A DNA stretch of 64,000 nt from positions 4,288,001-4,352,000 of the forward strand of contig OZ242311.1 of assembly GCA_965207885.1 (NCBI GenBank). Direction: 5' to 3'. Under the pieces are notes generated by a model. The model saw only the letters and a list, made by a program, of their open reading frames with translations. It searched no databases and was not told where the DNA came from. This document shows positions 23,985 to 41,960 of this stretch, one piece after another. The stretch is from Candidatus Latescibacterota bacterium. GTDB taxonomy: Bacteria > Latescibacterota > UBA2968. The translations under genes were made by a program, and so were the position numbers. The number at the start of each line of letters is the position of its first letter. The stretch's first letter is position 1.

Positions 23985-23991
23985 TTCTTTT

Positions 23992-24327
23992 ATGAGTCCT
24001 CATGACAAACCTCTGGTATGGCTTCACGGACAAATCAAAACGCCTCCATTTTCTCCAGCAGCGAGAATTGAAGCAGGTTTTCTTCTGCGTAGTCTCCAAG
24101 CTGGTGAACTGCTTTCAATGCCCCAGGCCAGACCAATGCCCTCTATTGGAAGGCATTGTTACGAATTGAGAGTTCGAGATCAGAATGAGACCTGGCGAAT
24201 CATCTATCGCATTGATTCGGATGCCATCGTCATAGCAGAAGTTTTCACAAAAAGGACTCGTCAGACGCCCAAAAGAATCATTGATATTTGTAAAAGACGG
24301 CTACAACACTACGATTCGATAGGATGA
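23992..24327 (+). CDS. RelE/ParE-superfamily toxin (HigB/Gp49-like)
   Basis: KPLVWL, RPMPSIG...ELRV, WRIIYRID, VF.K.T.QTP. Confidence 0.88.
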   Translation: MSPHDKPLVWLHGQIKTPPFSPAARIEAGFLLRSLQAGELLSMPQARPMPSIGRHCYELRVRDQNETWRIIYRIDSDAIVIAEVFTKRTRQTPKRIIDICKRRLQHYDSIG

Positions 24328-24330
24328 CTC

Positions 24331-24645
24331 ATGAATACAAAAAAGAAAAAACTTCTCGAGGCTGCCGGATGGCGTGTGGGTTCAACAGACGATTTTCTGG
24401 ATCTGACCGACGAAGAAGCCGCTTACATTGATCTCAAAATCACGTTGAGCAAGAAAGTGCGTCAATGCCGTGAGCGAGAAAATTTGACCCAAACACAATT
24501 GGCCAAATATCTCAAATCCAGTCAATCTCGTGTTGCCAAAATCGAAGCGGGCGATCCCTCTGTTTCTGTAGATCTATTAATTCGATCCCTCTTCGCGCTT
24601 GGGGTCTCCAAATCCGAACTCGCCGAAATGCTCGTATCGCAATAG
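24331..24645 (+). CDS. XRE-family HTH antitoxin (HigA-like)
   Basis: LTQTQLAK.LKSSQSRVAKIEAGDPSVS; toxin-first gene order. Confidence 0.88.
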   Translation: MNTKKKKLLEAAGWRVGSTDDFLDLTDEEAAYIDLKITLSKKVRQCRERENLTQTQLAKYLKSSQSRVAKIEAGDPSVSVDLLIRSLFALGVSKSELAEMLVSQ

Positions 24646-24780
24646 ACCGGTCGCCCAGGGCCGATTCACTGGCATGATGGCCCCCGTATAGGCCCCGTAA
24701 TGATTCTATACGGCAAGCTGCGTCAATCACAGGCTTGAAACCCAAGCCCTAAAACTCTCCACCGAAGCGGGGTAACTCCA
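24646..24780 (+). mobile_element. Remnant right end of an IS3-family element
   Basis: 24755-24780 reads TGGAGTTACCCCGCTTCGGTGGAGAG on the minus strand, like IS3/IS629-type TIRs; degraded transposase-like tail before it. Confidence 0.45.
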
Positions 24781-25110
24781 GTTTGCGTGCCGAACACGAC
24801 GCTTATTTACCGAAAGCATCGACAAACAGCAGAAAATCGCCAATCCCTATTGTGCCATCCCCATCCAGATCAAACCGCGCATCATATCCCGCATCGCCAC
24901 GACTTAATCCGAACCGGGTTGCAAACAGCAGAAAATCGCTAATGCCAACTGTCCCATCGCCATCAAAATCAGCCACTGGCGACTCCTCCGGAACACCAGT
25001 GACCACAGCATCGATGCCCACATCTGCCACTGTTAGAGGACCTCCGCCTTTCTCCTGAACTGGAAACTCTACGCAACCAATCGTCTTTCGCTCTCCGCGA
25101 GAATTTCCTA

Positions 25111-26047
25111 GGTAGTGTCTGAAAAGTCGTAAAGTATGTATTTTAGTTGCAGCATACGCCCTAAACCAAGGAGTATGATATGCAACGGAGATATGAACTG
25201 CGCGACGAGGCTTGGCATCTGATCCAAGACCTGTTCCCACCGCCGAAGAAGATGGGTCGTCCCCGTCGGGATGATCGTACATTATTCAACGGGATCTTCT
25301 GGATATTGTGTTCAGGTGCAGCTTGGCGCGACCTGCCAGAACGATATGGTCCTTGGCAGACAGCCTTTGACCGATTCTGCAAATGGAAACAGGATGGCAC
25401 CTTTGATCGCATTGTAGAAAAGCTACATCTCAAATTGGGTGAAGATGGTCTTTTAGATTATGCGACCTGGATGATGGATGCAACCCATATTCGAGCCACA
25501 CAAGCCGCGGCAGGAGCGAAAAAAAAAGGGCAAAAAGGGTGAAGAAGAGCCCCCAGATCACGCTTTAGGACGCTCTCGTGGCGGTTTGACCACGAAAATC
25601 CATCTTCTTTGCGATGCAGTCGGGCATCCTTTAGCAGTGGATCTTCTCCCTGGTAACCAGTCAGAATCCACACAGGCTGAAAGGCTACTGTCAAAGGTAT
25701 GCATACCCACCAAACGAGGGCGTCCAAGAAACCGACCCAAGTATCTGGTAGCTGATAAATCTTATGATGTCTCACGCATCAGAGTCTATCTACGCAAACG
25801 GGGTATCAAGGCTGCTATCCCAAACAAGGCGATTCCCAAAGGCAGAAAACGGCGTAAGAGAGGACCACGGCCTAAGTGTGATAAAAGATTATATGCCAAA
25901 CGCAATATCGTGGAGCGTCTCTTTGGTTGGCTTAAACACTGCCGACGGATTGTGACCCGATTTGAAAAAAAGGCGACTCATTTTCTCACTATGGTCAAGC
26001 TGGCCTGTATCAGACAACTCTTCAAAGCTTACTTTTCAGACACTACC
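25111..26047 (+). mobile_element. IS5-family insertion sequence (IS427-like), 937 bp
   Basis: Perfect 17-bp TIRs GGTAGTGTCTGAAAAGT / ACTTTTCAGACACTACC; TA target duplication; the empty site is visible in the paralog near 30770. Confidence 0.95.
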
Positions 26048-26050
26048 TAA
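25180..26050 (+). CDS. IS5-family DDE transposase in two frames joined at an A9 run (25519-25527)
   Basis: OrfA: GRPRRDDR, WRDLPERYGPW, MDATHIRA; OrfB: GRSRGGLTTKIH, ADKSYD, RNIVERLFGWLK. Confidence 0.9.
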
Positions 26051-28423
26051 GATATCGGTTGTTATATCTGGATAATACCCCTCTGCATTGCCAATCAGAC
26101 CACTGGATTCTCCCGGAGCAACAACCCCATTGGGCAGATAATCCACATCGATCCGCTCAACCTTTATCCCATCCCGATCAGGCATACCCAACTCGCCATC
26201 GGTGATATTCCCTTCCCAGGTGAAATTGACTGGCTCATCGTCCTGCACGAGTTCCACAGTCCTCTCAGATCTCTCCATCACAAAAGCATTATTCGCAATT
26301 ACACAATCCTTAGGTGCTATACCGTTGGGATACAGTCTGTGATTACGCCCTACAACCATCGCCGGACTACATCCCATAAATGTATTAAACGCGATCAGCG
26401 CGCGCTCCACCTGCACATAGTGCTTATCCATCGTCCCATCCCTTATACACACACCAAACGCATTGAGCGAGCGGAACAGATTGTTGACAACAACCTGATC
26501 CGTTCCCTGCAAGCACACACCGCCAGCACGTAGTTCACCCTCACCAAAAAAGAAATTCTCAGACACCACATTGCCATGCCCACTCCGAAGCGTCAGCGCC
26601 CCCCGGCAATCGCGAAACGTATTTCTACGGAGAATATTGCCATTGGACTTCACAGAAATGATCTCCGACTCACCGTTACAACGCTCGAAGAGATTGTACT
26701 CAATCACTGTCTCACAATCGCCCGGCTCAGGATCTTTAGGAGCACCCTCTGTAATCAGCTGAATCGTCTCGTACCCATTGTCTCCCCTGCCCTCTGGAAT
26801 ATCGACGAAGTGGTTATGATGGATGTGATGCCTCTCACCCTGATTGAAAACCTCAAACTGAATCAACTGGCAACCACTCATCTCAACGAGATTATTGGTC
26901 TTATTCTCAAATCGGCAACGCTCAATCTCCCGGCTCAGTGCACTGACGCGTATCCACTTGCCAACCTGAACATCGGTCATCACGCAGCGACTTATGCGAC
27001 AACCTCGACCGCGAATTTTTATGCTGCCCTTCTCCTCAAAGCGAAGACCTACGAGATTAATGTAATCTCCCTTTATTGATATGGGACCCTGTATAACGGC
27101 TTTCCCGATGTTTTTTGCCTGAATTGTGATGGGATGAGTAGTGGTACCCTTTGCTACCAACTCGCACACATCGCCATCATATACTCCGTCATCTAAGGTG
27201 ATTGTGTCGCCCGCCCGCGCGTCAGATACCCGGTGTTTAAGATCGGATAATGTCATAATTCCCGTGCGAAAGGTCAACGGTGGCACCGACGCATGCCCTA
27301 TGAGTAATACCTCGACCGTATTTTCTTTTGATGATCCCAATGTCAAGGTTGTCTGTGCTCTACCTACGGTATTGGTAGTGTCAGTGACGGTACTGAGTGA
27401 GCCACCACCTGAGGTGACGGTAAAAGACACCGGCACACCAGCAAATGTTTTATCCCTCTGATCCTGCACTTCCACAACAAATGGGGTCGCCAAAGCCGCA
27501 CCAGGCGTGCCATCCTGCACTTGCCCAGAGACTATGACCAACCTCGTCGGCGTGCGGGAATCGAAGCTCACGCTGACTCCGCGACTCTGAAGGGCGGGAA
27601 TGTGTGTATTGAGGGAAGGATAGCTCAGAGGGTTGCCTATCAAATAGACCTCGTCGCCATTTCCCAATCCCATGTTTACTACCAATGGCGAGATGTCCAG
27701 AATGTTGTTTCTATGAAGCTCCAGCTTTGTCAGACCAGTTAAGTTAGAAAGCGGAGACGCATCCGAAATACTGTTGCCTCGTAGCTTTAGATGGATCAGA
27801 TGGATTAAGCCCGAAAGGTGCGAAAGATCTGACATACTGTTCCGGCTAATATCCAGAAATGTCAGACGGGTTAAGTTAGAAAGCGGAGACGCATCCGAGA
27901 TTGAGTTGCGCTCAAGATCCAGAGATGTCAGACGGGTTAAGTTGGAAAGCGGAGATACGTTCGAGATCGAGTTGCTCTGGATATCCAGCAATGTCAAGCG
28001 AGTTAAGTTAGAAAGTGGAGATACATCCGAAATACTGTTGCCTGCAAGTTTTAGCTTTGTCAGGCTGGTTAAGCCCGACAGTGGCGAGAGGTTGAAGATG
28101 TCGTTGCTGTTGATATAATGACCACCCTCTCCCCACTCGCCACCGAGATAAAGATGGGTCAATCCGGTTGCATACTCAAGCCCGGTCAGGTTGTGGATAT
28201 TCGCATCCTGCGCGTCAATGCGCGTCAATGTCGCCATTTCCGCCCGGGTAATCGTCGCACCGCTTGCCTTGTCCAACGAGTCCTCAATGACAGCCCTCAG
28301 GTTCACATCGGGGATGGTTACGGTCTGGTTCTGCGCGCTGCTTTCGCCGCAGACGGCAAAGAAAATTAAAAGTATGGTAAAGACAGAGGATATATAACGG
28401 CAAAAAATCATAAATTTCCTCGC

Positions 28424-29236
28424 TCACTTTCTGTGGATGTCGTAGTACCGGAACCCGGCGGTGAGCCAGTAGCGATTCGCAGAGCGCAAGACCCTCGGTA
28501 AGCTGATCAACGAACCACCACGCAACACATGCCTATTGCAGTCTCCAAATATCCAGGCAGAACCATCTGTAGGTGCCCCCTCGTAATTCTCATTCCAACA
28601 ATCTTGCACCCACTCCCACACATTGCCATGCATATCGTAAACACCCCACGCATTCGCCTCGAACGATCCCACTGGCGCTGTCTGCTTATCGTCCCACTGA
28701 CTACCGCATCCATCACAATTGGCGCGGTTGACACCGATGCTGTCTCCCCAGCTATACGCTGTCTCTGTCCCTGCACGTGCCACATACTCCCACTCCGCTT
28801 CACTCAATAAACGATATGTTTTACCCGTCCTCTCAGACAACCAACGCACATAAGACTGCGCATCGTCCCAACTCACATTCACTACCGGACGATTTCCGCG
28901 GCCCCAGCTATCACTCGGAATATCCGGAATATAGTTTCCACAACCTCCTGCATCCATACAGGCATACCATTCGTCAAATGTCACCTCATATACACCCACC
29001 GCAAACTGGTAATCTATATGCACCCTATGCAGCGGCCTTTCATCAGAATGACCCCTCTCACGCGTGGGTGACCCCATCCTGAACGATCCCGATGGCACCA
29101 CCACCATCTTTGGGCATTCATCACAGTCTTGAAAAGTCTCTCCAGGTGAAGGTGCACTATTCCCGGTGTTCTGTTGTGACCATAGAGGAAGGCTCAGAAG
29201 AATTAATACACCTGTACAAATACAGTGACGATCCAT
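28424..29236 (-). CDS. Secreted FGE-sulfatase/SUMF1 (CLec-fold) domain protein, C-terminus truncated
   Basis: FQDCDECPKMVVVP.GSFRMGS, RLLSEAEWEYVARAG, DMHGNVWEW, VLRGGS; terminal GFRVAR replaced by HRK*; lacks catalytic FGE cysteines. Confidence 0.88.
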   Translation of the reverse strand: MDRHCICTGVLILLSLPLWSQQNTGNSAPSPGETFQDCDECPKMVVVPSGSFRMGSPTRERGHSDERPLHRVHIDYQFAVGVYEVTFDEWYACMDAGGCGNYIPDIPSDSWGRGNRPVVNVSWDDAQSYVRWLSERTGKTYRLLSEAEWEYVARAGTETAYSWGDSIGVNRANCDGCGSQWDDKQTAPVGSFEANAWGVYDMHGNVWEWVQDCWNENYEGAPTDGSAWIFGDCNRHVLRGGSLISLPRVLRSANRYWLTAGFRYYDIHRK

Positions 29237-29311
29237 CTTGGCTCTCCTTTCATCAATTCCCCCTGCTATAGAAGATTCTTGGCCTCTAAAAAATGTCAAG
29301 TATCACCTCTG

Positions 29312-30376
29312 CTATCTGCCCTGTATATAGGTCACTTCATATATGATGGTCCCTTCCTCATCGCGGCTGACCCATTTTCCGTGCCGCTTGCCATCCGCAA
29401 ATGGGCCTTCGGATGTGCCTCCATCATAAGAAGGAAAGCTCCAGTGACCGTGCCGCTTGCCGTTCACATAAGGGCCTTTAGCTATGTGAGTTCCCCACTC
29501 AATCTCAACCCATTGTCCGTGCTTTTTTCCGTTCACATAGGAGCCGCCCCCTGTGCGACCCTCCGGGCTACGTTCGACCCATTGTCCGTGCTTCTCGCCA
29601 TCCACGTACGGGCCTTCGAATACGATATGCCTGAACCTCCGCATTTGCTGGACCCAATGCCCGTGCCGCTTGCCGTTCACGTACGGGCCTTTCTCGTCAT
29701 TGAACTTATAAAAGTACCAATAATAGCGATAGATCCATTCTCCGTGTTTCTTACCATCCACATAAAGGCCTTGCCTTACGATCTCGTCGAGGGGCATTTC
29801 GATCCAATGTCCGTACCGTTTGCCATCCCGCAAGTATCCCATTTCTTCACCTTTGTCGGTATAGAGAGTGCCGTGAAAAATAGCAACGGTCTTGAGTGTT
29901 CCCCTTCCCTGGGCAAAACCATCGGAACACTCACCCGACCAGGCCATGATCTCACCCTCTCTGAGATTATCGTTCCAGACATAGCATTTGGGGTGATTGA
30001 TCAACTCCATCCAGCAACCCGCACCTGACGGTTTTCCTTCACACGTTCCATCAGCTTTGATAATTTCGTTGTCGAACACGTCCTCGGAATCTGCTGGCGT
30101 TTCGTCACCGTCAGCACTATGCTGCGCCTTTATATATCCCTCAACCTCACGCATCAGTTCCAGAGCTTCTTTTGTCAGCACTGCGCCGCGTTCTTTTTTT
30201 AACGCTTCGAGCTTTTTCAGCACTCTCAATGTACCCCCGTAGTCGCCTTTGCCGTACAGTTCTTTTGCCAGATTCAGATAATCGCCCCATTGGGCACGTG
30301 GCGGAAATCCGGCTGTTGCAACTGTGAAGAATCCCAACATTACTGCAATAAAAAAGTTCCTGACTACTTCACGCAT
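29312..30376 (-). CDS. Secreted MORN/YwqK-like repeat protein with TPR-like and Cys-rich modules
   Basis: Signal peptide; C.GKP.G..CWMEL.NHP.CYVWN module; about 7 GPYV(D/N)GK(R/K)HG.W repeats. Confidence 0.8.
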   Translation of the reverse strand: MREVVRNFFIAVMLGFFTVATAGFPPRAQWGDYLNLAKELYGKGDYGGTLRVLKKLEALKKERGAVLTKEALELMREVEGYIKAQHSADGDETPADSEDVFDNEIIKADGTCEGKPSGAGCWMELINHPKCYVWNDNLREGEIMAWSGECSDGFAQGRGTLKTVAIFHGTLYTDKGEEMGYLRDGKRYGHWIEMPLDEIVRQGLYVDGKKHGEWIYRYYWYFYKFNDEKGPYVNGKRHGHWVQQMRRFRHIVFEGPYVDGEKHGQWVERSPEGRTGGGSYVNGKKHGQWVEIEWGTHIAKGPYVNGKRHGHWSFPSYDGGTSEGPFADGKRHGKWVSRDEEGTIIYEVTYIQGR

Positions 30377-30463
30377 GGTGTGTCTCCTTAAATCGTGCCT
30401 TATTTAACATGCGATTACTTTAAGAGGCCCCGTGCTGAGTAGATTGCGTGCCGAACACGACGC

Positions 30464-33171
30464 TTATTTACCGAAAGCATCGACAAACAGCAGAAAATCG
30501 CCAATCCCTATTGTGCCATCCCCATCCAGATCAAACCGCGCATCATATCTCGCATCGCCACGACTTAATCCGAACCGGGTTGCAAACAGCAAAAAATCGC
30601 TAATGCCAACTGTCCCATCGCCATCAAAATCGGCCGTTGGAGACGCCTCCGGAACACCAGTGACCACAGCATCGATGCCCACATCTGACACTGTTAGAGG
30701 ACCTCCGCCTTTCTCCTGAACTGGAAACTCTACGCAACCAATCGTCTTTCGCTCTCCGCGAGAATTTCCTAAAATATCGGTTGTTATATCTGGATAATGT
30801 CCCTCTGCATTGCCAATCAAACCACTGGACTCTGCCGCACAACAACCCCATTGGGCAGATAATCCACATCCACCTTAGCAATTCTTATCCCATCCCGATC
30901 AGGCATACCCAAATCCCCATCCGTCACATTCCCCTCCCACATCCAATCCACTGGCTCATCGTCCTGCACCAGCCGCACAGTCCTATCGGATCCCACAAAA
31001 GCATTATTCGCAACCACGCAATCCTCAGGTGCTATACCGTTGGGATGCAGTGGGTGATTTAGCCCCACATCCATCGCCGGACTACATCCCACAAACGTAT
31101 TAAACGCAATCAGCGCGCGCTCCACCCGCACATAGAGATCATCCATCGTCCCATCCCTCACACCCACGCCAGACGCATTGAGCGAGTGGAACAGATTGTT
31201 GACAACAACCTGATCTGTCCCTTGCAAGCGCACACCGCCAGCCCGGCGTTCGCCCTCGCCAAAAAAGAAATTCTCAGACACCACATTGCCATGCCCACTC
31301 CGAAGCGTCAGCGCCCCTCGGCAATCGCGAAACGTATTCCTGCGGAGCGTATTGCCATTGGACTTCACAGAGATAATCTCCGACTCCCCACTACAGCGCT
31401 CAAAAAGGTTGTATTCGATTAGGGTTCCAGAGTGGCCCGGTTCCGGGTTCCAAGGATTTCCCTTTATAACAAGTTGAAGCGTTTCATAGCCATTGCCCAA
31501 CTTGCCCTCTGGAATATCGACGAAGTGGTTGTGGTGGATGTGGTGGTGTTCTCCCTTGTCTAGCACGACGATTCGCATCAATTGGTGGTCAATGTACCCC
31601 TCCGCAACATGGGGAATGTCGAACCTACCGCCCTCATGATCGGTGTTGTTGGTCTTGTTCTCGAATCGGCAGTAATCAATTTCGATTTGCTGACTTTCCG
31701 GCAATACGTCCATCCAAATGCCTACCTGAACGTCTGTCATTACACAGCGACTGATGCGACAACCTCGACCGCGAATTTTTATACTGCCCTTCTCCTCAAA
31801 GCGAAGACCTACGAGATTAATGTAATCTCCCTTTATTGATATGGGACCCTGGATAACGGCTTTCCCGATGTTCTTCGCCTGAATTGTGATGGGATGGGCC
31901 GCGCTCCCCTTTGCTACCAACTCGCACACATCGCCGTCATATACTCCGTCATCTAAGGTGATTGTGTCGCCAGGACGCGCGTCAGATACCCGGTTTTCAA
32001 GATCGGATAATGTCATAATTCTCGTGCGAAAGATCAACGGTGGCACCGACGCATGCCCTGGGATTAACACCTCGACCGTATTTTCTTTTGATGATCCCAA
32101 TGTCAAGGTTGTCTGTGCCCTACCTTTGGTATTGGTAGTGCCGGTGGTGGTACTGAGTGAGCCACCACCTGAGGTGACGGTAAAAGACACCGGCACACCA
32201 GCAAATGCTTTATTTCTCTGATCCCGCACTTCCACAACGTATGGGGCAGACAAAGTCGATCCGGGCGTGCCCTCCTGCCATTGCCCGGAGGCTATGACCA
32301 ACTTCGTCGGCGTGCGGGAATCGAATCTTACGCGGACCCCGCGGCCCTGAAGGACCGGAATGTGCGTATTGAGGGAAGGATAGCTCAGAGGGTTTTCTTT
32401 CAAAGAGACCTCGTCGCCATTTCCCAATCCCGTGTTTACTACCAATGGCGAGATGTCCAGGATGGCGTTTCTAAGAAGACTCAGCAGTGTCAGATCAGTT
32501 AAGTTAGAAAGCGGAGATATATCCGAAATACTATTGTCCCACAGCTTCAGTTGCTTTAGACGGATTAAGCCCGCGAGGTGCGAGAGATCTGATATACTGT
32601 TCTGGCTAATATCCAGAAACGTAAGTAGAGTTAAGTTGGAAAGCGGAGACGCATCCGAGATTGAGTTGCGCTCAAGATCCAGAAAAGTTAGACGGGTTAA
32701 GTTGGAAAGCGGAGATACGTTCGAGATTGAATTGTGCTGGATATCCAGAAATGTCAAGCGAGTTAAGTTAGAAAGCGGAGACACATCCGAAATACTGTTG
32801 CCTGCAAGTCTTAGCGTTTTCAGGCTGGTTAAGCCCGATAGGGGCGAGAGGTTGGAGATGTCGTTGCTGTTGATATAACGACCACCTTCTCCCCACTCGC
32901 CACCGAGATAAAGATGAGTCAATCCGGTTGCATACTCAAGCCCAGTCAGGTTGTGGATATTCGCATCCTGCGCGTCAATGCGCGTCAATGTCGCCATTTC
33001 CGCCCGGGTAATCGTCGTACCGCTTGCCTTGTCTAACGAGTCCTCAATGACAGCCCTCAGGTTCACGTCGGGGATAGTTACGGCCTGGTTCTGCGCGCTA
33101 CTTTTGCCGCAGACGGCAAAGAAAATTAAAAGTATGGTAAAGACAGAAGATATATAACGGCAAAAAATCAT
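30464..33171 (-). pseudogene. LRR + Ig-like + PL6-like beta-helix + dockerin-like protein, copy 2, frameshifted near 30835
   Basis: Paralog of 24803-28411; one base shorter at about 30833-30840, splitting it into ORFs 30817-33171 and 30464-30820. Confidence 0.82.
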
Positions 33172-33183
33172 AAATTTCCTCGC

Positions 33184-33530
33184 TCACTTTCTGTGGATCT
33201 CGCATTTGACCTCTGCTCGCTCACATAGCTTTGTCCATTGATACAGCGCGGTCCCATAACTCATGCGCTGATCTTTGTATTTTCCCGTCCTGAAGAGTGG
33301 TCCCGCGGTTAAATCTTCATTGCGAAGATACGCGCGCAATAGTTTCAGGCTTTCAAACTCAAAGGGCAACGGGACCTCGCGCTCGTACTCTCCTTTGCCT
33401 CTGAACCGCATACCCTCCTGCCCAGCACTCAGGACAATATCCTCAACGTAAATGCCCAGATACGAATCCCAGTTTCGGCCAGCAGAGTGAACACCAGGCA
33501 TCTCAGCACTGTTGATCTATATCAAACCAC
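33184..33530 (-). pseudogene. Tyrosine recombinase (XerD-like) catalytic-domain relic
   Basis: CLVFTLLAETGIR (catalytic R box) in one frame; GIYVEDI, RGKGEYEREVP, GPLF in the next; stops at EIHRK*, where HxLRH is expected. Confidence 0.75.
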
Positions 33531-33578
33531 ATCTTCGATGCTCACATTATAGTTGCATAAATACACCTGATTCGCTCA

Positions 33579-34310
33579 TTACCGACACATTTCCTTATTT
33601 ACCTTTTTCCTTTCTACCTCTTGATCTTGATGATATCTAATGGACAAGCAAACTTCAAGAATACGATTATACACTAACCAGGTGCCTTCTCTTTTTCCGT
33701 TTATATATTCACGCCTTGATTTGTACCCTTCACTGAAATGAAAAACCGATTTGCCGTGCGCCTTGCCATCTACAAAGGAGATTTCCCTTACGGACCCATC
33801 TCTCTCACGGAGGACCCATTTGCCGTGCGGCTTGCCGTTCACATAGAAGCGTTCCTCTACGGCTCCATCCAAGTGACGCCAGATCCATTGCCCATGCTTT
33901 TTGCCATCCACATAGGGACCTTCCTCTACGGTCCATTTCGAGGGACGATGGACCCATTGTCCATGAAAATTGCCTTTCTGGAGGTGCCCAGTGTCCGTCC
34001 CTAAAATTTTAAGAGAGTCTCCGTCAGTAACAGCCCAGGTAAGCGTTCCTTCCCCATGAGCCAAATTTCCTGAACACTTGCCAGACCAGGTCACGGTCTC
34101 GTCTTTCTGAAGGTAAGGATTCCAGATATAGCATTCAGACTGGTTGGTCAACGCCATCCAACAACTGGAGCCTACAGGCTTTCCGCCACACGTTTTCCCG
34201 GCACTGATCTCCGGCGGCAGTTGAGCGGATGCCGGACCTGTCAACACAAGCGCCGAAATGAAAAAGCCAATAAGCATTTTTCGCCTGGCGTGTCGCTTTA
34301 TTTGATCCAT
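33579..34310 (-). CDS. Secreted MORN/YwqK-like repeat protein with Cys-rich module
   Basis: Signal peptide; CGGKPVGSSCWMALTNQSECYIWN; GPYVDGKKHGQW-type repeats. Confidence 0.8.
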   Translation of the reverse strand: MDQIKRHARRKMLIGFFISALVLTGPASAQLPPEISAGKTCGGKPVGSSCWMALTNQSECYIWNPYLQKDETVTWSGKCSGNLAHGEGTLTWAVTDGDSLKILGTDTGHLQKGNFHGQWVHRPSKWTVEEGPYVDGKKHGQWIWRHLDGAVEERFYVNGKPHGKWVLRERDGSVREISFVDGKAHGKSVFHFSEGYKSRREYINGKREGTWLVYNRILEVCLSIRYHQDQEVERKKVNKEMCR

Positions 34311-34314
34311 CCTT

Positions 34315-34980
34315 TTAAAATCGCAGCACAGCCTTTACAAATGCTTGCCGACGGGGGTAAGAAATCCCAAAAGACAATGGGGAGATGCGCCGTTTCTCGG
34401 AAAGTGATTGTATGGGAAGCATGTTTATTCTGTCTCTGATTTTACAGTAAAATTCTTGTTCTTTTCCGTTGTCAACTCGCACATGTAAGGTTTCCCCAGA
34501 TTTGTCCTTCATTACAAAATGGGTATTCTCTCGCAAGAGAACGCGTTCGGGGAATACTCCCTTTGATACCAGGGTAATCCCTGCTGATATTGTACTTTTT
34601 GCATAAGGTGATTCCAAGAACTCCCACCCATCTTGTTCATCTAAGACTGCACATAGTGCATACACTCCAAAAGTTATCCCCGCAAGACCCAGATCGTGAA
34701 AAAGTTTTCTCCACGCACCCGTTTCTCTGTGCATCCCTACTTTTACAGTATCATCCATCCCGAATTGTGCAACTAATAGGTTTGTCTTCTGGGCATATAC
34801 ACGAATTGTTTTTTCGTCACACTTGACAATTGCGGGAAACCAGTCTCCCTTATCTGAAACTCGATAAGCTGTTATTCCACCTGAAAATGTACAAATATCT
34901 GCTGACACCTCATGGGCTACCGCAACTGTGAAAAATCCCAATAAGATTGTAAAAAGAATGCCTTTGATTACGCTCTGCAT
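34315..34980 (-). CDS. Hypothetical secreted protein
   Basis: Signal peptide MQSVIKGILFTILLGFFTVAVA; ends in VLRF. Confidence 0.65.
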   Translation of the reverse strand: MQSVIKGILFTILLGFFTVAVAHEVSADICTFSGGITAYRVSDKGDWFPAIVKCDEKTIRVYAQKTNLLVAQFGMDDTVKVGMHRETGAWRKLFHDLGLAGITFGVYALCAVLDEQDGWEFLESPYAKSTISAGITLVSKGVFPERVLLRENTHFVMKDKSGETLHVRVDNGKEQEFYCKIRDRINMLPIQSLSEKRRISPLSFGISYPRRQAFVKAVLRF

Positions 34981-35085
34981 AGGTGTACCTTCCTTTCGTT
35001 GGTGATTCTGTTAGGTGTAGGTGAATAAAAAAACACCACCTCTTTTCCTTCCCACACAAGAGGTAAAGAGATAAAGAGTCAGGAG

Positions 35086-35490
35086 TTAAAGATCCCGGGC
35101 AACTCGAAAACCGATGAAGTCGTCCCGGTTCTCGGTGGGAAGCCTGAAGCGAGCCGCAGAACGCAAGAAACTCGGTAAGCTAAACCACGAACCACCACGC
35201 AACACGCGCATTCTGCAGTTCCCAAACAGCCAGGCAGATCCATCTGTCGGTGCCCTTCGTAATTCTCGTTCCAACAATCTTGTACCCATTCCTCTACATT
35301 CCCGTGCATGTCGTGAAGTTCCCATCTGTTGGCACTGAAGGAATCCACCGGAGATGAGTGTCGCTTATCCCACTGACTGCCGCAACCCGAGCAATTGGCA
35401 CGGTTAACACCAATGTCGTTCCCCCAGCTATACGTTGTTGTTGAGCCAGCACGCGCAACACAACGCCAGTAATCCAGTGACTTTAGTCAT
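35086..35490 (-). pseudogene. FGE/CLec-domain pseudogene with intact VR-like 3' end
   Basis: MTKVTGLLALC start joined by deletion to VARAG...YSWGNDIGVNRANC; frameshift near 35255; ends RGGSW...IGFRVARDL*. Confidence 0.8.
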
Positions 35491-35635
35491 CACCGCGACC
35501 GCCTAAGACCGTTTACATAGGTCTCTGTGCGTGTGCGTCCGGACGAGTCACGCCTAACATAATCGCCGTGCCTCTTGCCGTCCACATAAGGGCCTTTCTT
35601 TACTGTTCTGCCGTAAGTCTCGACCCAATGGCCCG
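35490..35635 (-). pseudogene. Orphan 3' fragment of a MORN-like repeat gene
   Basis: GHWVETYGRTVKKGPYVDGKRHGDY...TETYVNG with no proper 5' end. Confidence 0.65.
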
Positions 35636-35682
35636 GACAGCTTGCCCTGTCCACAAACGCGATCGGGAAACTTCTGCAAAGA

Positions 35683-36732
35683 CTATTGCTTCTCGCCATT
35701 CACATAAGTTGATGTTTTTGTTCTAACTATTTTGCCGCCTGCCATTACACGCTCGACCCATTGCCCGTGCCGCTTGTCATCCACATATGAGCCTTTCTCT
35801 TCTTCATATCCATCACTCCATCCCCCCCACGCGCCCCTGGATCTCAAGACCCATTCGCCGTGTCGCTTGTCGTTCACATAGAGACCTCCCCAATCTCCAC
35901 TCGCCTCCGGGTGACTATAGACCCACTGCCCGTGCCGCTTCCCTTCCTTATAGAGGCCTTTCTCTGTGGTCCTACTATCCTCCCACCGTACAACCCACTG
36001 CCCGTGCCGCTTGCCTTCCACATAGGGGCCTTCAAATATGCCCCCATTCCCCCGTTCAACCCACTGCCCATGCTTCTTGCCTTCTACATAGGGGCCTTCC
36101 TCTGTCATGAACGTACCCCACCGTACAACCCACTGCCCGTGCCGCTTGCCTTTCTGGAGATGCCCTGTTGATGTAATTGAGCCTCCGTCAGTAAAAGCCC
36201 CGGTAAGCGTTCCCTCCCCATGAGCCAAATTTCCTGAACACTTGCCAGACCAGGTTACGGTCTGCTCCGTATAGTAGTAGTCATTCCAGACATAGCATTC
36301 AGGATGGTTGGTCAATTCCATCCAACAACTGGAGCCAAAAGGCTTTCCAGCACACATTTCCTCAGCACTGATCTCAGTCCCTTCAACTTCGAGCAATAAC
36401 ACCAGTGCCTCCCTATAGAACTGTCCCTCTCTCCCTGTTGCTGACAGATACTTGTTTACCGACTCATGCGCGATCTTGATTGAATCTGCTGACCAGGCCA
36501 CACGCGCATATTTGAAGTGAAACTCGTCCGGCAATGTGAAGTTGTGCTCTTTTTGTAGCGCGATGATCTTTTCCATCACATTGAAGGCACCTGCATAGTC
36601 TTCTTTTGCATGTAACTGGTCTGCCTGAATCAGATGTTTATCTACCATGATCTCTGGCGGTAGTTGGGCAGATGCAACCGTGAAAAATCCCAGCGAAAAT
36701 AGAACGAAAATACTTCTGATGACGCTCTGCAT
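35683..36732 (-). CDS. Secreted MORN/YwqK-like repeat protein with TPR-like and Cys-rich modules
   Basis: MQSVIRSIFVLFSLGFFTVASA signal after AAGGAG; helical domain; CAGKPFGSSCWMELTNHPECYVWN; about 6 GPYVEGKRHGQW repeats. Confidence 0.82.
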   Translation of the reverse strand: MQSVIRSIFVLFSLGFFTVASAQLPPEIMVDKHLIQADQLHAKEDYAGAFNVMEKIIALQKEHNFTLPDEFHFKYARVAWSADSIKIAHESVNKYLSATGREGQFYREALVLLLEVEGTEISAEEMCAGKPFGSSCWMELTNHPECYVWNDYYYTEQTVTWSGKCSGNLAHGEGTLTGAFTDGGSITSTGHLQKGKRHGQWVVRWGTFMTEEGPYVEGKKHGQWVERGNGGIFEGPYVEGKRHGQWVVRWEDSRTTEKGLYKEGKRHGQWVYSHPEASGDWGGLYVNDKRHGEWVLRSRGAWGGWSDGYEEEKGSYVDDKRHGQWVERVMAGGKIVRTKTSTYVNGEKQ

Positions 36733-36760
36733 GATGTCTCTCCTTTCATTATTTGACCTG

Positions 36761-37390
36761 CTATCGCTGTGTGCAGCCCCACACGCGCACACGGCATGAT
36801 TTTCCACCTCTTCGTCGGCATTCGCTTAGTGCCCTGTTTTGCGCTGCCACGCTACTGTTATCCTTTCCCCAGCCATAGATGGTGCTGCCCGGCTCTTGAT
36901 CCGCCGCGAAGGCACCGCATTGGTCGCTGAATCTCATGACCACATGGCAATTGTTGCCGCACTCGGCAAGTGCCCGCTGTTCCGCCTGTTGAGCAGTCGG
37001 ATAGTTGATGGCCCAGCCCCACGACGGCCCTTGATTCGAGTCAATGGCGAGTGCTCCCCACAGCGTAGTATTCGCTGTTTGATCGCCTTGAGTCAGTGCT
37101 GGCGCATCGAAGTGGCTGCTCATACCGGACATTTCGATAACGGTAAATGTGTTCGTAAACGCCATGAACTCGTCCGCGGCCTGGTAAGCGTCCATGGAAT
37201 CGTAGGAACCGCCAGTTTGGGCTGTAACCTGGCGCAGATCCTGTGCCGCTTGCGCGTTCGGAGTCATGCTATACCCCAACAGCAAGCTATTTTTGCCATG
37301 TCCACCCTCTTGAGAAAAAGCCTGCGATCCCCAACTGATCGCAGCCACAACCATAGCGGCCTTTACCATTGTTCTTGCAATACGGTTCAT
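36761..37390 (-). CDS. Secreted DUF4189 domain protein
   Basis: WGALAI...WGWAINYPT..QAEQRALAEC...C.VV.RF..QCGAFA...RALSEC; signal peptide; AGGAG RBS. Confidence 0.75.
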   Translation of the reverse strand: MNRIARTMVKAAMVVAAISWGSQAFSQEGGHGKNSLLLGYSMTPNAQAAQDLRQVTAQTGGSYDSMDAYQAADEFMAFTNTFTVIEMSGMSSHFDAPALTQGDQTANTTLWGALAIDSNQGPSWGWAINYPTAQQAEQRALAECGNNCHVVMRFSDQCGAFAADQEPGSTIYGWGKDNSSVAAQNRALSECRRRGGKSCRVRVWGCTQR

Positions 37391-37463
37391 TGTAAGTCTC
37401 CTATATGAAGGATGAGTAGTTGCCCGCAGGGCAGTCGCCTGGGACTCGAATTTGATTTACAAA

Positions 37464-37479
37464 TGCAAAAAGCGTGCCA
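37464..37479 (-). promoter_or_regulatory. Sigma54 (-24/-12) promoter upstream of the secreted-protein array
   Basis: Minus strand TGGCACGCTTTTTGCA matches TGGCACG-N4-TTGCW exactly; 73 bp upstream of ATG 37390. Confidence 0.88.
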
Positions 37480-37510
37480 ATGTGAGCATTGTGTTCCAGA
37501 CATATACTCG

Positions 37511-37523
37511 TAACAGGTTGTTT
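37511..37523 (-). promoter_or_regulatory. IHF-like bending site
   Basis: AAACAACCTGTTA vs WATCAA-N4-TTR (1 mismatch), AT-rich flank, between promoter and UAS. Confidence 0.45.
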
Positions 37524-37589
37524 TATATAAAGAAAAAAGCCAATCTGACTATATAATATCGCCGCAAAACAGTCGGATTGGCTTTTGCA

Positions 37590-37649
37590 TAAGACTTTAT
37601 ACGGTCTTATATAAGACGTATTATGGTCTTGAGACTATAGTACGTCCTT
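37590..37649. promoter_or_regulatory. Three tandem palindromic upstream activator sites
   Basis: TAAGAC-N8-GTCTTA (37590), TAAGAC-N8-GTCTTG (37612), TGAGAC-N8-GTCCTT (37630). Confidence 0.7.
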
Positions 37650-37749
37650 TTTTGTTTGCAAGTGTGAGAGTCAATAATTATGTTTTCCTTTGCAAATGGG
37701 AGATACACTATGAACCCGTTTTTTTTCTTCACATCACAAGGTTCTTTCC

Positions 37750-40700
37750 ATGACCAAACCTCTTGACCGCACGGGCACCTGGCAGACGTATTCTCTGGAT
37801 AGCGGCCTGGCCGGGATGCGCATTGAACACATTGCGCAAGATAGTGAGGGTTGTCTCTGGTTCGCCACCTGGGACAACGGTGCCAGCCGATTTGATGGAG
37901 ACGAGTTCCGAAATTTTACCGAACGAGACGGTCTTTGTAGTGACCGGACTTTTTTTGTTCAAAAGGACAGTCGTGATCGGTTGTGGTTCGGTACATCAAA
38001 GGGCGTATGCTGGTACGACGGGGCAAATTTTCACCATTTGAAGGACGATGGCATTGCAGGCCGATCCGTGCAGTGCATCTACGAAGACAGTGAGGGACGT
38101 ATATGGTTCGGTGGCAAGAGTACTCTGGGATATTACGATGGCACTGCTTTCCACGACATGACCCCGCTCTACCTCCAGCGCTACGAGCAGCCTCCCTCTC
38201 CTAAGGTTTCTTTTTGTTGGGGTATCACCCAGGATATGGAAGGTCACCTGTGGTTTGGCTTTGACTACCTCATCCGCTTTGATGGGCAATCCTTTTACCG
38301 CTATGATGAGAAAGAGGGTTTTCCCAAAGATGCGGTCGCCTATGTTTTGGATAGAGACCATACCGGCAAAGTGTGGATCGGTCGGTTCGAAAATCGAGAT
38401 GAACTCTGGTGCTATGCCGATGGCACTTTCCAGTCTGTTCAGGTAGATTTGGGGGGGTGGCTGCGCAAAATTCAGTGTGATCGGGAAGGGCGAATATGGT
38501 TCTGTACCTCAGAGGGAGTACTATATCAGGACGGTAATAGATTCAGCAGGTTTCCCCTTGTCGATGGCTTGCATCCCGCAGTCAAAGCCGTATTTCAGGA
38601 TGGCGAGGATCAGTTTTGGTTCGCCACCTGGAGTGGCATTGGGCTTTACGATGCGCATAGTATCAGCGTTTTTGACCCCGATAAGGTGTTTCCCAAAGAT
38701 ATAGAGCCGTGCGAGATCTCTCAGCTTGTGCAAGACAGTCGTGGTGATATATGGATCGGGTATATTTCTCCCATTCTGGCTTCTCTGGGCAAAAGAGTCG
38801 CCCGTTTTGATGGTAAGGACTTTGCATTCTTAGGCCCCGAGCAAGACTTTGCTATCGACAACTGTCTTTCTATCTACGAGGACCACGAGGGGTATTTGTG
38901 GTTTGGCGGCGGCACTGGCCTGTTCCGCTACGATGGACAAAAAATAGAAAAAACGGAAATAGCGACAGGCTTAGGCGAAAAGAGTATCAGCACAATTACC
39001 CAGGACGCACAGGGACAATTCCTTTTTGGTCATTGGGAAAGCGGCACGCCAATAAATAGAGAAGATTTTCTTATCAGTCCATTAAAGCTCATTTACCAGC
39101 AAGGAGAGCAGTTCCAAACCATTTTTGTGGAGAAAGAAAAAAAAGATGCTTTTAGTCACATTAGTCGCATCGGTACTGTGATTGTCGGACGCACGGGCGA
39201 GGTCTGGTTCCATCTGGCCTACCATAATTTCTCCGACACCGACAAGGGCTTCGCGCGCTGGCATCCCAAAGATGGGCTCAAATTTTATGGACTTGAAGAT
39301 GGGCTGATAGACGATAGGGTCACCGATCTTTTGGAAGACCATCAGGGAAACCTGTGGATCGCTACTCAGGGTGGTCTGGCTTGCTTTGATGGTAGCAACT
39401 TTCAGGCCTTCACGATTGAAGATGGCTTGCCGAACAATCGCATCCGTTGTCTATTCGAGGATTCGCGAGGACACCTCTGGCTCGGTACAGACGGGGGTGT
39501 GGTTCACTACGATGGTCAGCATTTCCAAACGATCAAGTCACCGCATATAGGATTGGTTTGCAAGATACTCGAAGATCGCGATGGAAATTTCTGGTTTGGC
39601 ACTGCGCTGGGTTCTATCATACGCTACCGTCAGCGGCAAACGCCGCCACAGATTCGCCTGCTTCGGGTGATTGTCGATAAGGTCTATGAGAACTCGAAGG
39701 AAGTCATTGTATCCACGGCAGGACAGCAGGTGATTTTCGAGTACAAAGGCATGAGTTTTTCCACCCATCCCCGCGACATGCTCTATATCTATCGCCTGGA
39801 GGGATACGATTCTGACTGGCAGCCTGCGACGCGAAAGATGCGGGTGCATTACCGGGACTTGCCACCGGGAGACTACGCTTTCCAGGTCAGGGCGATAGAT
39901 CACGACCTCAATTATTCAGAGATAGCGCAAGCGCGACTCTCAGTAGAGCCTGACCCACGTATCGAAGCATTTACGGACGTAATCAACCATCGAGGAAGCC
40001 AGAAGTTTATCGGTCATAGCGCAGCACTGCGCCAGTTTCAAACCAATCTTGAAAAAATTGCACCCACCAATATAACCGTGCTGATTATGGGCGAGACGGG
40101 TGTGGGCAAAGGACTGGCGGCGCGGGTGTTACACGCGCTGAGTGCCAATAGCGAGGGGCCTTTTATAGAGGTCAGTTGCGGCGCACTGCCCGAGGCATTG
40201 ATCGATAGCGAACTGTTTGGTCACGAGAAAGGGGCGTTTACCACTGCAGTTTCCCACAGATTGGGCAGGGTGGAACTGGCGAAGGGTGGCACACTCTTTT
40301 TAGATGAGATTGGGGATATGGCTCTTGAAACGCAGGTCAAGCTGTTGCGCTTGCTGGAAGAGGGCACATTTGAGCGCGTTGGGAGCAGCGAGACACTGAC
40401 GGCGCAGACGCGCATTGTGGCAGCGACCAATCGCGACTTAAAGGAGATGGTCAGCACAGGTGATTTTCGGGAGGATCTCTATTACCGCCTCAATGCCTTT
40501 CTGATGTATTTGCCGCCGCTGCGCGAGCGCAAGGAAGATATACCGGAGTTGGCCGAGTATTTCAAGGATCGTCTATCAGCACATATAGGCAAGCAAACAG
40601 ATCCTTTGACGCCAGAAATCATCAAGATATTGCAAACCTATGATTGGCCAGGCAATGTGCGGGAACTGGAACATACCATACAACGGGCAGTGATCTTGTG

Positions 40701-40965
40701 TCCTGATTCTCAAATCGGAGTGGAGGACCTGGGATTGTATGGTTATCGAATCGAAGATATGGGTCAGCGGACCTTATCCGCTTCTCAAGACCGCCCAATC
40801 GTTCCCTTAAATGAGTTTGAACGCCGCTACATCCTCGACGTGCTCAAAGCCACCAAATATCAGATAAAGGGACCTGAGGGCGCGGCGACATTGCTGGGAG
40901 TACCGCCTTCTACCCTGTACGGCAAAATGAAAAGACTGGGTATCAAAAATCAAAAACCAAAGTAG
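37750..40965 (+). CDS. Sigma54-dependent activator (bEBP) with Reg_prop beta-propeller and Y_Y_Y sensor domains
   Basis: D..G.LW(F/I)(G/A)T repeats, YIYRLEGYD..W (Y_Y_Y), GETGVGK, ELFGHEKGAFTTA, FLDEIG, WPGNVREL, Fis HTH; no signal peptide or TM helix seen. Confidence 0.92.
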   Translation: MTKPLDRTGTWQTYSLDSGLAGMRIEHIAQDSEGCLWFATWDNGASRFDGDEFRNFTERDGLCSDRTFFVQKDSRDRLWFGTSKGVCWYDGANFHHLKDDGIAGRSVQCIYEDSEGRIWFGGKSTLGYYDGTAFHDMTPLYLQRYEQPPSPKVSFCWGITQDMEGHLWFGFDYLIRFDGQSFYRYDEKEGFPKDAVAYVLDRDHTGKVWIGRFENRDELWCYADGTFQSVQVDLGGWLRKIQCDREGRIWFCTSEGVLYQDGNRFSRFPLVDGLHPAVKAVFQDGEDQFWFATWSGIGLYDAHSISVFDPDKVFPKDIEPCEISQLVQDSRGDIWIGYISPILASLGKRVARFDGKDFAFLGPEQDFAIDNCLSIYEDHEGYLWFGGGTGLFRYDGQKIEKTEIATGLGEKSISTITQDAQGQFLFGHWESGTPINREDFLISPLKLIYQQGEQFQTIFVEKEKKDAFSHISRIGTVIVGRTGEVWFHLAYHNFSDTDKGFARWHPKDGLKFYGLEDGLIDDRVTDLLEDHQGNLWIATQGGLACFDGSNFQAFTIEDGLPNNRIRCLFEDSRGHLWLGTDGGVVHYDGQHFQTIKSPHIGLVCKILEDRDGNFWFGTALGSIIRYRQRQTPPQIRLLRVIVDKVYENSKEVIVSTAGQQVIFEYKGMSFSTHPRDMLYIYRLEGYDSDWQPATRKMRVHYRDLPPGDYAFQVRAIDHDLNYSEIAQARLSVEPDPRIEAFTDVINHRGSQKFIGHSAALRQFQTNLEKIAPTNITVLIMGETGVGKGLAARVLHALSANSEGPFIEVSCGALPEALIDSELFGHEKGAFTTAVSHRLGRVELAKGGTLFLDEIGDMALETQVKLLRLLEEGTFERVGSSETLTAQTRIVAATNRDLKEMVSTGDFREDLYYRLNAFLMYLPPLRERKEDIPELAEYFKDRLSAHIGKQTDPLTPEIIKILQTYDWPGNVRELEHTIQRAVILCPDSQIGVEDLGLYGYRIEDMGQRTLSASQDRPIVPLNEFERRYILDVLKATKYQIKGPEGAATLLGVPPSTLYGKMKRLGIKNQKPK

Positions 40966-40966
40966 A

Positions 40967-41923: not shown

Positions 41924-41960
41924 GTATTCCTCACTTAAGAATGGGCAAGCCCCACCCAAC

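Follow-up and report, generated by a model that had tools for sequence, protein, structure and literature searches.

We analyzed a window of 64,000 nt (positions 4,288,001-4,352,000 of contig OZ242311.1, assembly GCA_965207885.1) from the genome of Candidatus Latescibacterota bacterium. The genome is a metagenome assembly of 6.23 Mb in a single contig (designated G000:C1 below) and is 97% complete. All plain coordinates are positions within the window. The locus described here consists of a gene of a sigma-54 activator (bacterial enhancer-binding protein, bEBP) on the plus strand, a control region with a sigma-54 promoter and, divergent from the activator, an array of genes of secreted proteins that extends from 37390 down to 24803 (about 12.6 kb). 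Its best explanation is one copy of a conserved regulatory module that stands before exchangeable genes of secreted surface or host-contact proteins.

The initial annotation described the array as a block in which all genes other than those of insertion sequences (IS) are on the minus strand. This is borne out by the calls of open reading frames (ORFs) and by Pfam: the sole plus-strand gene is an IS5-family transposase (25180-26050). The genes are closely spaced, with intervals of 28, 99, an overlap, 88, 12-75 and 13 bp, and a gap of 408 bp precedes the second lyase copy. A hydropathy heuristic finds a hydrophobic stretch at the N-terminus of each of the 8 intact products, followed by an AxA-like site, in line with the claim that signal peptides are nearly universal in the array.

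The first gene behind the promoter (36761-37390; all array genes are on the minus strand unless marked otherwise) encodes a secreted DUF4189 protein of 209 aa (Pfam E 7.8e-25), a family that had been named among the cargo. Next come a secreted MORN-repeat protein of about 349 aa counted from the ATG at 36732 (35683-36732; recognized by its repeats and by a family profile), a MORN fragment (35490-35699; ORFs and repeat comparison) and a frameshifted 3' fragment of an FGE gene (35079-35460; Pfam and repeat comparison). They are followed by a 221-aa protein of no known family, whose N-terminus is signal-like and which has a further hydrophobic segment inside (34315-34980), a secreted MORN-repeat protein of 243 aa (33579-34310; ORFs and a Pfam scan of family members) and a possible tyrosine-recombinase relic of 105 aa (33184-33501). 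The relic was already part of the initial annotation; a match exists, but it is weak and below the cut-off (Phage_integrase E 0.015, 15.5 bits against 27.1).

Copy 2 of a lyase gene occupies 30464-33171. Its main ORF (30817-33171) carries leucine-rich repeats (LRR), a Big_1 domain and a Chondroitinase_B domain resembling polysaccharide lyase family 6 (PL6), and its dockerin/EF-hand-like tail (30464-30820) is in another frame of the assembly, with the split at about 30820-30836. Behind it are genes of a secreted MORN-repeat protein of 354 aa (29312-30376; family profile) and of a secreted protein with an FGE-sulfatase domain, i.e., of the C-type lectin (CLec) fold (28424-29299; Pfam E 2.8e-56). 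Copy 1 of the lyase, with the same Pfam domains (26050-28411; ORF 26036-28411), is severed from its tail by an IS5-family element of 941 bp with terminal inverted repeats (25109-26049, plus strand; NCBIfam transpos_IS5_3). The tail itself (24803-25108), 97% identical to that of copy 2, forms the left end of the array. The three MORN-like proteins with a fragment and the two LRR-Ig-lyase genes had been correctly recognized. One of the two reported FGE/CLec genes is intact, but the second is the frameshifted fragment. The 221-aa near-orphan gene and both dockerin-like tails had been overlooked.

The activator (37750-40965, plus strand, 1071 aa) starts with a double-propeller and Y_Y_Y sensor (residues 1-745), which is followed by an AAA+ domain and a helix-turn-helix (HTH) domain. 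Pfam reports Reg_prop (E 7.6e-49), Y_Y_Y (E 1.8e-12), PF00158 Sigma54_activat (E 7e-65), AAA_lid_14 and HTH_8, and the AAA+ motifs GETGVGK and LFLDEI are present. The sensor matches structures of the periplasmic sensors of Bacteroides hybrid two-component systems (HTCS): 3V9F with E 2.3e-45, 4A2L/4A2M with E 2.4e-39, and also 3OTT. The activator has no membrane-like segment (the top 19-residue Kyte-Doolittle mean is 1.04), and its open frame extends just 12 codons 5' of the ATG. The whole family is soluble by this measure: no segment exceeds a hydropathy mean of 1.6 in 119 of 120 relatives. The description of a soluble beta-propeller sensor-activator divergent from the array is therefore supported by the Pfam domains and the hydropathy. 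Judged from its sequence, the protein appears to re-use in the cytoplasm a glycan-sensor fold known from the periplasm, fused to a sigma-54 engine. The AAA+ part matches the NorR, NifA and MobR models, all below their cut-offs. An assignment of the activator to PrsR was rejected, as the model TIGR02915 gives 304 bits against a cut-off of 502.6. The genome has a single rpoN (one Sigma54_DBD match, E 1.2e-57, in a 496-aa frame).

A consensus -24/-12 promoter had been claimed before the array. Indeed, TGGCACGCTTTTTGCA at 37464-37479 (minus strand), 74 nt before the ATG of the DUF4189 gene, is an exact consensus with the correct spacing of the -24 GG and the -12 GC. It is one of two exact matches to TGGCAC-N5-TTGC in the 64 kb, where 0.21 are expected, and the sole zero-mismatch match to TGGCAC-N5-TTGCA in the window. 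A sigma-54-like site with one mismatch at 44311-44326 is antisense inside a plus-strand radical-SAM gene and was taken as chance.

Between the promoter and the activator gene lie several elements. Nearest to the promoter is a site like those of the integration host factor (IHF), AAACAACCTGTTA at 37511-37523 (minus strand), which belongs to a conserved block AAAACAAcccTTTAcGAgTAT between enhancer and promoter and is one mismatch away from the IHF consensus WATCAANNNNTTR. Two enhancer-like upstream activating sequences (UAS) follow. UAS-2 (37535-37586) is an inverted repeat with 16-nt arms that are 94% complementary and 20 nt apart, followed by a T-run. UAS-1 (37591-37646) consists of the palindromes GACGTACTATAGTC / GACCATAATACGTC and an overlapping palindrome. 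Two direct repeats TCTCNCANTTGCAAA at 37655-37703 adjoin the start of the bEBP gene; they are conserved in related loci and are possibly the activator's own promoter or operator.

UAS-1 and UAS-2 each occur once in the 6.23-Mb genome. The palindromes lie 60-180 bp upstream of the promoter and are candidate activator sites. In an alignment of the control regions of 12 loci the palindromes, the IHF-like block and the promoter are near-invariant, the changes in the UAS-1 palindromes are symmetric, and the genes behind the promoter differ. Different HTH classes accompany different palindromes among the loci. UAS half-sites at 14174 and 14324, inside a pentapeptide-repeat gene, were taken as chance.

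Further sigma-54 promoters were seen elsewhere in the genome. An orphan copy of the promoter at G000:C1 4180815 (minus strand), 145 kb from the nearest activator, precedes a small HTH gene and has the IHF-like block and no palindromes; it is probably a relic of a lost module. A second strict promoter class with its own upstream motif occurs at G000:C1 403885, 495375, 1410728, 1830810 and 2193266, each time before a protein of about 800 aa. Judged from the sequence and not from a search, the N-terminus of these proteins presumably resembles a MacB/FtsX-type permease.

The comparison with congeners separates a kept switch from a swapped cargo. In five congeneric genomes (G003, G008, G010, G015, and G020) the proteins flanking the locus are 91-99% identical to those of the window. 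The left flank consists of MazG and a 170-aa gene, and the right one of genes of an ornithine-cyclodeaminase-family protein, a CBM9 protein and a C45 acyltransferase. What lies between the flanks differs in every congener compared. G003 has a 278-aa protein, FGE and the 221-aa gene, here cut by the contig end. G008 has a 393-aa protein, FGE, a 338-aa protein, FGE, an intact 888-aa LRR-lyase-dockerin protein and a MORN fragment. G015 encodes a 194-aa protein, FGE, a MORN-FGE remnant, a 402-aa protein and a fragment of a reverse transcriptase (RT), and G020 a 376-aa protein, FGE, proteins of 205 and 505 aa and a transposase. The array is absent in G010.

DNA homology with four congeners spans the activator and the control region and ends at 37462, 37441, 37441 and 37449, i.e., within about 25 bases past the -12 element. 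The deletion in G010 joins 24783 to 38829 and took away the array together with the promoter and the activator's first 360 codons. The syntenic activators of G008, G015 and G020 are 67-71% identical to that of the window in the propellers, 89-91% in the AAA+ domain and 80-100% in the HTH. Divergence is far faster in the sensor than in the output part or in the adjoining genes.

The module is not confined to this place. The genome has 8 activator copies, 67-73% identical to the window copy, one of them split in two. Strict sites of the form TGGCA[CT]-N5-TTGC[AT] are rare, only 50 in the whole genome, and 6 of the 8 copies have one of 5 of these sites at a distance of no more than 3 kb. An activator match at E <= 1e-100 was found in 25 of 41 genomes of relatives (G000 counted). 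By taxon, 16 of 20 genomes of the same genus have the activator, with 0-11 copies each, as do 6 of 16 genomes of the second family of the order. At E <= 1e-150 a match was found in 55 of 168 genomes of a phylum sample. When the sensor alone served as the query, 4181 of the 7999 proteins scored reached E <= 1e-10. Identity is 68% or more in the best 120, almost all of which share the same set of domains. In a protein atlas the single named cluster of this architecture comes from Latescibacterota.

The position of the promoter recurs as well. In 11 of 12 same-genus loci around the closest relatives a divergent site lies 258-300 bp from the start codon of the activator, and in the twelfth the site follows the stop codon on the same strand. 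We also considered a set of 64 loci that partly overlaps these 12. A divergent site is found there at 258-354 bp in 20 loci, a site 161-440 bp after the stop in 25, and a same-strand upstream site in 2; altogether 42 loci have at least one site at a defined position, and only 1 site is elsewhere. When one mismatch was allowed, 41 of 59 evaluable loci had a site (20 divergent, 24 downstream), against 0 of 59 in the controls, which were two same-sized windows inside each activator gene; because the genomes counted are kin, these locus counts do not represent independent events. In the other family of the order, two loci have a site with one mismatch, 281 and 288 bp past the stop codon. The association of activator, sigma-54 promoter and variable secreted genes, which had been proposed as a test in homologous loci, is thus present in most of them.

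The genes behind these promoters are diverse. In the genome of the window the paralog loci encode a 1111-aa cadherin-like/fn3/Calx-beta protein with another two large proteins behind it, an LRR protein that carries an EF-hand-like piece, together with DUF1800 proteins, and, at the paralog P6, a 2694-aa fn3-cadherin-GH5-LRR protein with a dockerin. Three WD40 proteins are encoded beside the split activator copy. We classified the first ORFs behind 45 promoters of the 64-locus set. Nine of them are LRR proteins, 6 belong to the cadherin / fn3 / Calx-beta / LDL-receptor / SWM class, 5 to a 376-414-aa family ('MWNRI') with a weak NCH3 match only, 3 are GH2-like, 2 are WD40 proteins, and 2 have Imm_superinfect. 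Single cases are a TonB-dependent receptor, FGE-PKD, redoxin, a multicopper oxidase and GPP34-P450 (5 of 45), as well as receiver-AraC, HAD, FRG, DUF6851 and a weak peptidase (another 5 of 45). The remaining 8 have no family. A hydrophobic N-terminal stretch is found in 39 of the 45, and in many of them a signal-like segment is directly followed by a dockerin-like repeat. The LRR, WD40 and cadherin proteins among the sister cargo include giants of 600-2700 aa.

Two of these first genes deserve mention on their own. In one locus (L095 630-2594) the first gene behind the divergent promoter encodes a fusion of GPP34 (Golgi phosphoprotein 3) with cytochrome P450. A recent study links GPP34 to sponge symbiosis among Actinobacteriota (PMC11706023). 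In an activator subfamily with the HTH motif ITNYQISGDRGAA the first ORF encodes a small membrane protein (Imm_superinfect E 3e-16) and precedes a second activator gene (L061 3714-4085, L066 6449-6820, L010 about 16160).

The lyases and the kind of sensor could suggest a catabolic regulon similar to a polysaccharide utilization locus (PUL), in which a degradation product of a sulfated or acidic polysaccharide is the ligand of the sensor and the cargo serves feeding and not host recognition. The homology of the sensor to the glycan sensors of Bacteroides HTCS is consistent with this, as are the Chondroitinase_B domains (PF14592; E 1.7e-45 over model positions 5-416 of 426, and E 2.2e-43; the activity is predicted only), the FGE-like protein in the cargo, the GH5 domain in the 2694-aa protein, and the GH2-like (3/45) and TonB-dependent receptor (1/45) first ORFs. 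However, most of the cargo is without an enzyme domain, as the LRR, cadherin/fn3-type and WD40 classes (9, 6 and 2 of 45) illustrate, Pfam finds neither a transporter nor a SusC/D-like pair in the window array, and the sensor is cytoplasmic, unlike those of PULs. We regard a feeding regulon as unlikely.

The dockerin-like tails of the window lyases score 19.3 and 20.9 bits against a Pfam cut-off of 22.9. Dockerin-like matches number 61 genome-wide, 43 of them over the cut-off, and 8 of the 61 sit at activator loci. Only 2 cohesin matches were seen, in giant frames of 3038 and 1268 aa (G000:C1 722612-726841). Many dockerin proteins and few cohesin giants may mean a cellulosome-like display of secreted proteins on few scaffolds.

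The DUF4189 and MORN genes bring in another reading. The DUF4189 domain has six cysteines, its gene is single-copy in the genome, and the protein weakly matches the structure 7NHZ of M. tuberculosis Rv1813c. A recent preprint states that secreted Rv1813c has the same fold as the DUF4189 protein XAC2611, and that the latter protects Xanthomonas from its own type IV secretion system (preprint 10.64898/2026.05.09.723464), so the mention of DUF4189 as a protective family has a basis. The MORN-like proteins of the window are singly below the Pfam cut-offs (E 1.3e-4 to 0.033) and have 509 relatives at E <= 1e-5. A profile of 45 family members matches eukaryotic MORN1 (6T6Q) at E 3.4e-15 as well as RSPH1 and junctophilin; in a Pfam scan of these members MORN_2, the YwqK-type repeat, was found in 16 and MORN in 12 of the 45. 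Some relatives are fusions with DUF4189, which ties the first two array genes together.

The array could accordingly be imagined as a poly-immunity island like the recombinase-associated rAID arrays, with periplasmic immunity proteins against toxins of neighbours gathered by a recombinase. In addition to the XAC2611 precedent and the MORN_2 repeats, there are recombinase-like relics at 33184-33501 and 22766-23278. Yet neither relic reaches its Pfam cut-off (E 0.015 and 0.018), no intact recombinase accompanies the array, VirB4 and TssC were not found in the 97%-complete genome, and the gene junctions are without repeats. The largest genes are LRR-lyases, the giant sister cargo is likewise unlike immunity proteins, and the best matches of the MORN profile are eukaryotic MORN proteins. 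No known immunity family beyond the single DUF4189 was found in the cargo with Pfam and NCBIfam (PADLOC and dedicated immunity libraries were not searched). We consider this reading very improbable. Of the two functions that the initial annotation left to choose from, host recognition (or another surface role) fits the cargo better, with its LRR, MORN, WD40, cadherin/fn3 and dockerin-tagged proteins. The 221-aa protein has relatives in just 4 other clusters among 5.8 billion sequences.

The FGE-sulfatase fold is used by variable proteins of diversity-generating retroelements (DGR). The FGE gene (28424-29299), whose nearest NCBIfam model is PvdO (219.6 bits against a cut-off of 500), could then be a DGR target, and the array a DGR-varied binding repertoire. 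The RT fragment in the syntenic array of G015 (RVT_1 E 9.7e-9; L040 2176-2613) points in this direction, but it is a 145-aa fragment. The three RT genes of the genome are at 3.12, 4.08 and 5.77 Mb, none of them in the window, and the repeats detected in the window include no non-coding copy of the FGE 3' end that resembles a template. DGR-type diversification of the CLec/FGE genes, as suggested earlier, therefore has a very low probability in our view. Integron-like cassette exchange was rejected: there are no junction repeats, and inverted repeats outside coding repeats are found only in the control region.

The history of the array is partly visible. The stretch 24780-30376 recurs in 30441-36732, with DNA blocks 82-97% identical, and the array is a decayed tandem duplication of a unit composed of MORN, FGE and LRR-Ig-lyase-dockerin genes. 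In the promoter-proximal unit most of the FGE gene is gone, and the 221-aa gene, the short MORN gene and the recombinase relic are there instead. The remnant region 35079-35699 is collinear with the FGE 3' end and the next gene in G003.

We compared the assembly with contigs from two public runs of one sample, possibly the source sample (X1 and X2). The contigs of both runs have one extra base after 30836 at full depth (64.3/64.3 and 164.5/164.5). With this base the two ORFs of lyase copy 2 (784 and 118 aa) become one open frame of 902 aa, which is 83% identical end-to-end to the intact 888-aa protein of G008. Because of the extra base and the intact counterpart we attribute the frameshift of copy 2 to an assembly error. 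Further apparent frameshifts in the G000 assembly may likewise be single-base errors. By contrast, the FGE fragment is genuine, since the X1 and X2 contigs agree with 34062-36011 without any difference. Lyase copy 1 is genuinely interrupted by the IS, and removal of the IS in silico gives an open frame of about 887 aa. In X1/X2 the IS (25109-26049) is covered about 20 times as deeply as its flanks, and the same IS5-family element is also found beside the 2694-aa cargo gene of P6 (L013 4328-5217). Contig joints in a further run, X5, which connect 28680 to 35365 and 24880 to 30612 and could be forms with one unit instead of two, were not used: the matching sides are 20-26 letters long, and the sample is mixed. 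The earlier phrase "recombining repertoire" applies to the array loosely, for a hypervariable island with duplication, deletion and IS insertion; no stricter sense is supported.

Some neighbouring genes complete the description. The conserved 170-aa gene at the far flank (22766-23278, minus strand), which has the weak match to Arm-DNA-bind_4 (an integrase arm-binding N-terminus) given above, is 94-95% identical in G010, G015 and G020. Toxin-antitoxin-like genes (Phd/YefM-like, Gp49/HigB-like, HTH_3) at 23411-24645, between this gene and the array, are common to G010 and absent from G015 and G020. Farther away are a pentapeptide-repeat protein that is HetL-like below the cut-off (13946-14845) and the selenocysteine genes selB and selA, both over the cut-offs (15101-18402). 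An Rfam scan of 22000-42000 revealed no family at the gathering score.

Several observations count against the explanation by a conserved module with exchangeable cargo. The signal-peptide calls come from a hydropathy heuristic. The sigma-54 contact loop of the activator is GAFTTA and not GAFTGA, the textbook form; in the 120 relatives it is GAFTSA in 92 cases, GAFTGA in 11, GSFTSA in 3 and GAFTTA in 1, and none was found in 13. Two of the 8 own paralogs are without a sigma-54 site, with IS elements adjoining both, and 18 of the 59 evaluable loci are without one even at one mismatch. A role of the palindromes as hairpins is also conceivable (one of them has a terminator-like score), and the match between HTH class and palindrome class is confounded by kinship. 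The ligand of the activator is a guess, weakest for the copies that have LRR cargo only. Finally, the array is 12.6 kb long and has gene remnants, a 408-bp gap and no second sigma-54 site. The IS elements beside the two promoterless paralogs are of another kind, with DDE transposases of 371-374 aa.

With these points taken into account, we still consider it fairly probable from the sequence evidence that the module controls at least the proximal cargo and that this cargo serves surface or host contact. For the whole 12.6 kb being one transcription unit the balance is close, slightly on the negative side. A single unit is favoured because all genes are on one strand with short gaps, there is no excess of terminators, and the key gaps have no sigma-70-like match. 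Terminator-like sites in the array number 13 against a shuffle mean of 15.6, none of them at a gene end with a good T-run; no sigma-70-like match was found in the gaps before the 354-aa MORN gene or lyase copy 2; and the fold of the array end (24640-24830, minus strand) is no terminator (z -0.78). The length of the array, the remnants, the 408-bp gap and the second sigma-54 sites in some longer arrays disfavour it. These second sites lie 4.6-5.2 kb further on (L032 2920, L038 3511) and suggest that one site does not serve very long arrays.

An alternative is that the switch reaches no further than the promoter-proximal gene or genes (DUF4189 and perhaps the first MORN gene) and that the rest is silent or has its own promoters; the rest of the block would then be a decaying hypervariable island and not a co-regulated array of 12.6 kb. 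The remnants at 35079-35699 and 33184-33501, the gap before lyase copy 2, the IS inside copy 1 and the single sigma-54 site agree with it. The common strand, the short gaps, the terminator count and the lack of sigma-70-like matches in the two gaps speak against it, and we think that a switch restricted in this way is improbable.

Under the explanation by a conserved module, the switch could work as follows. The unanchored sensor would hold the AAA+ domain inactive until a cytoplasmic signal binds, and binding would release it. The activator, presumably bound through its HTH to the palindromes, would then open the sigma-54 closed complex with the help of DNA bending. Transcription would enter the DUF4189, MORN, FGE and LRR-Ig-lyase-dockerin genes. 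Relatives of the propeller/Y_Y_Y sensor bind glycans, and BT4663 binds its ligand. Since, in addition, the cargo includes a PL6-like lyase, our best guess by analogy is that the signal may be a glycan fragment.

Each part of the module has known counterparts. The Bacteroides HTCS with their PULs (e.g., BT4663; 4A2L/4A2M, 3V9F) have a homologous double-propeller and Y_Y_Y sensor and the same logic of many paralogous sensors, each beside its own set of exported proteins, with a lyase in the cargo. However, the window sensor has no flanking membrane helices, which makes it cytoplasmic and not periplasmic; the output is AAA+ and HTH_8, with no kinase, receiver or AraC domain in Pfam; and the cargo is mostly repeat proteins and not Sus-like transport and degradation sets. 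The absence of membrane helices, kinase, receiver and AraC rules out membership in the hybrid two-component family.

One-component activators of the XylR/DmpR, NorR and MobR type have the same fusion of sensor, AAA+ and HTH beside the target promoter, and both have upstream palindromes and an IHF-like site. They differ from the window family in the sensor (V4R, GAF or PAS and not a 745-aa double propeller) and in the targets, which are catabolic or detoxification enzymes and not secreted repeat proteins. The family described here has up to 11 copies per genome and the GAFTTA/GAFTSA loop. In the PEP-CTERM system with PrsK/PrsR (PMC1569441), a sigma-54 activator is also linked to many tagged secreted proteins; here the tag is dockerin-like, there is no receiver domain, and the cargo is beside the regulator. 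Integrons and rAID arrays also have exchangeable genes on one strand behind a fixed promoter with a divergent conserved gene, and the recombinase-like relics near the window array are a further likeness. In the window, however, the divergent gene encodes an activator and not an integrase, there are no attC-like repeats at the cargo junctions, and the genes are large and often tandemly duplicated.

Closest to the cargo is a study of sponge-associated bacteria including Latescibacterota, in which eukaryote-like LRR, WD40 and fn3 genes were counted (PMC12993501). The likeness is that of phylum and protein class; the study gives gene counts, does not address how the genes are controlled, and its text does not mention sigma factors. 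In the literature searched nothing links Latescibacterota with sigma-54, and the best-ranked papers describe neither a propeller/Y_Y_Y sensor on a sigma-54 activator nor sigma-54 control of eukaryote-like proteins or of sponge symbionts. Sigma-54 activators, propeller sensors and eukaryote-like proteins are already known singly. New with respect to the searched literature is a cytoplasmic double-propeller sigma-54 activator in many private copies with exchangeable secreted repeat proteins.

A more far-reaching reading, which we put forward tentatively and hold to be possible without being likely, is that Latescibacterota handle their exported proteins by a PUL-like logic, with plug-in cassettes that each have a fast-evolving cytoplasmic propeller sensor, a private enhancer and a sigma-54 promoter. 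Each cassette would answer a different cue, possibly a host-derived one, by turning on secreted proteins of its own that are eukaryote-like or act on the matrix, with the switch kept and the cargo exchanged from the transcription start on. If this is true, it would be the first described regulatory system dedicated to the eukaryote-like proteins of symbionts.

Eukaryote-like repeat proteins are the best-known genomic mark of symbionts of sponges and other animals. How their expression is controlled, and by which signals, is not described in the literature searched, and the locus with its sister copies offers a testable answer. What can be tested is a defined family of activators, whose ligand-binding domain is very large, and a set of defined DNA sites. 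A sigma-54 promoter is silent without its activator; therefore, the switch lends itself to reconstruction in a laboratory host and to screening with candidate ligands. With its conserved on-switch and changing cargo, the locus points to a way in which such bacteria may regulate the proteins of their surface and of host contact.

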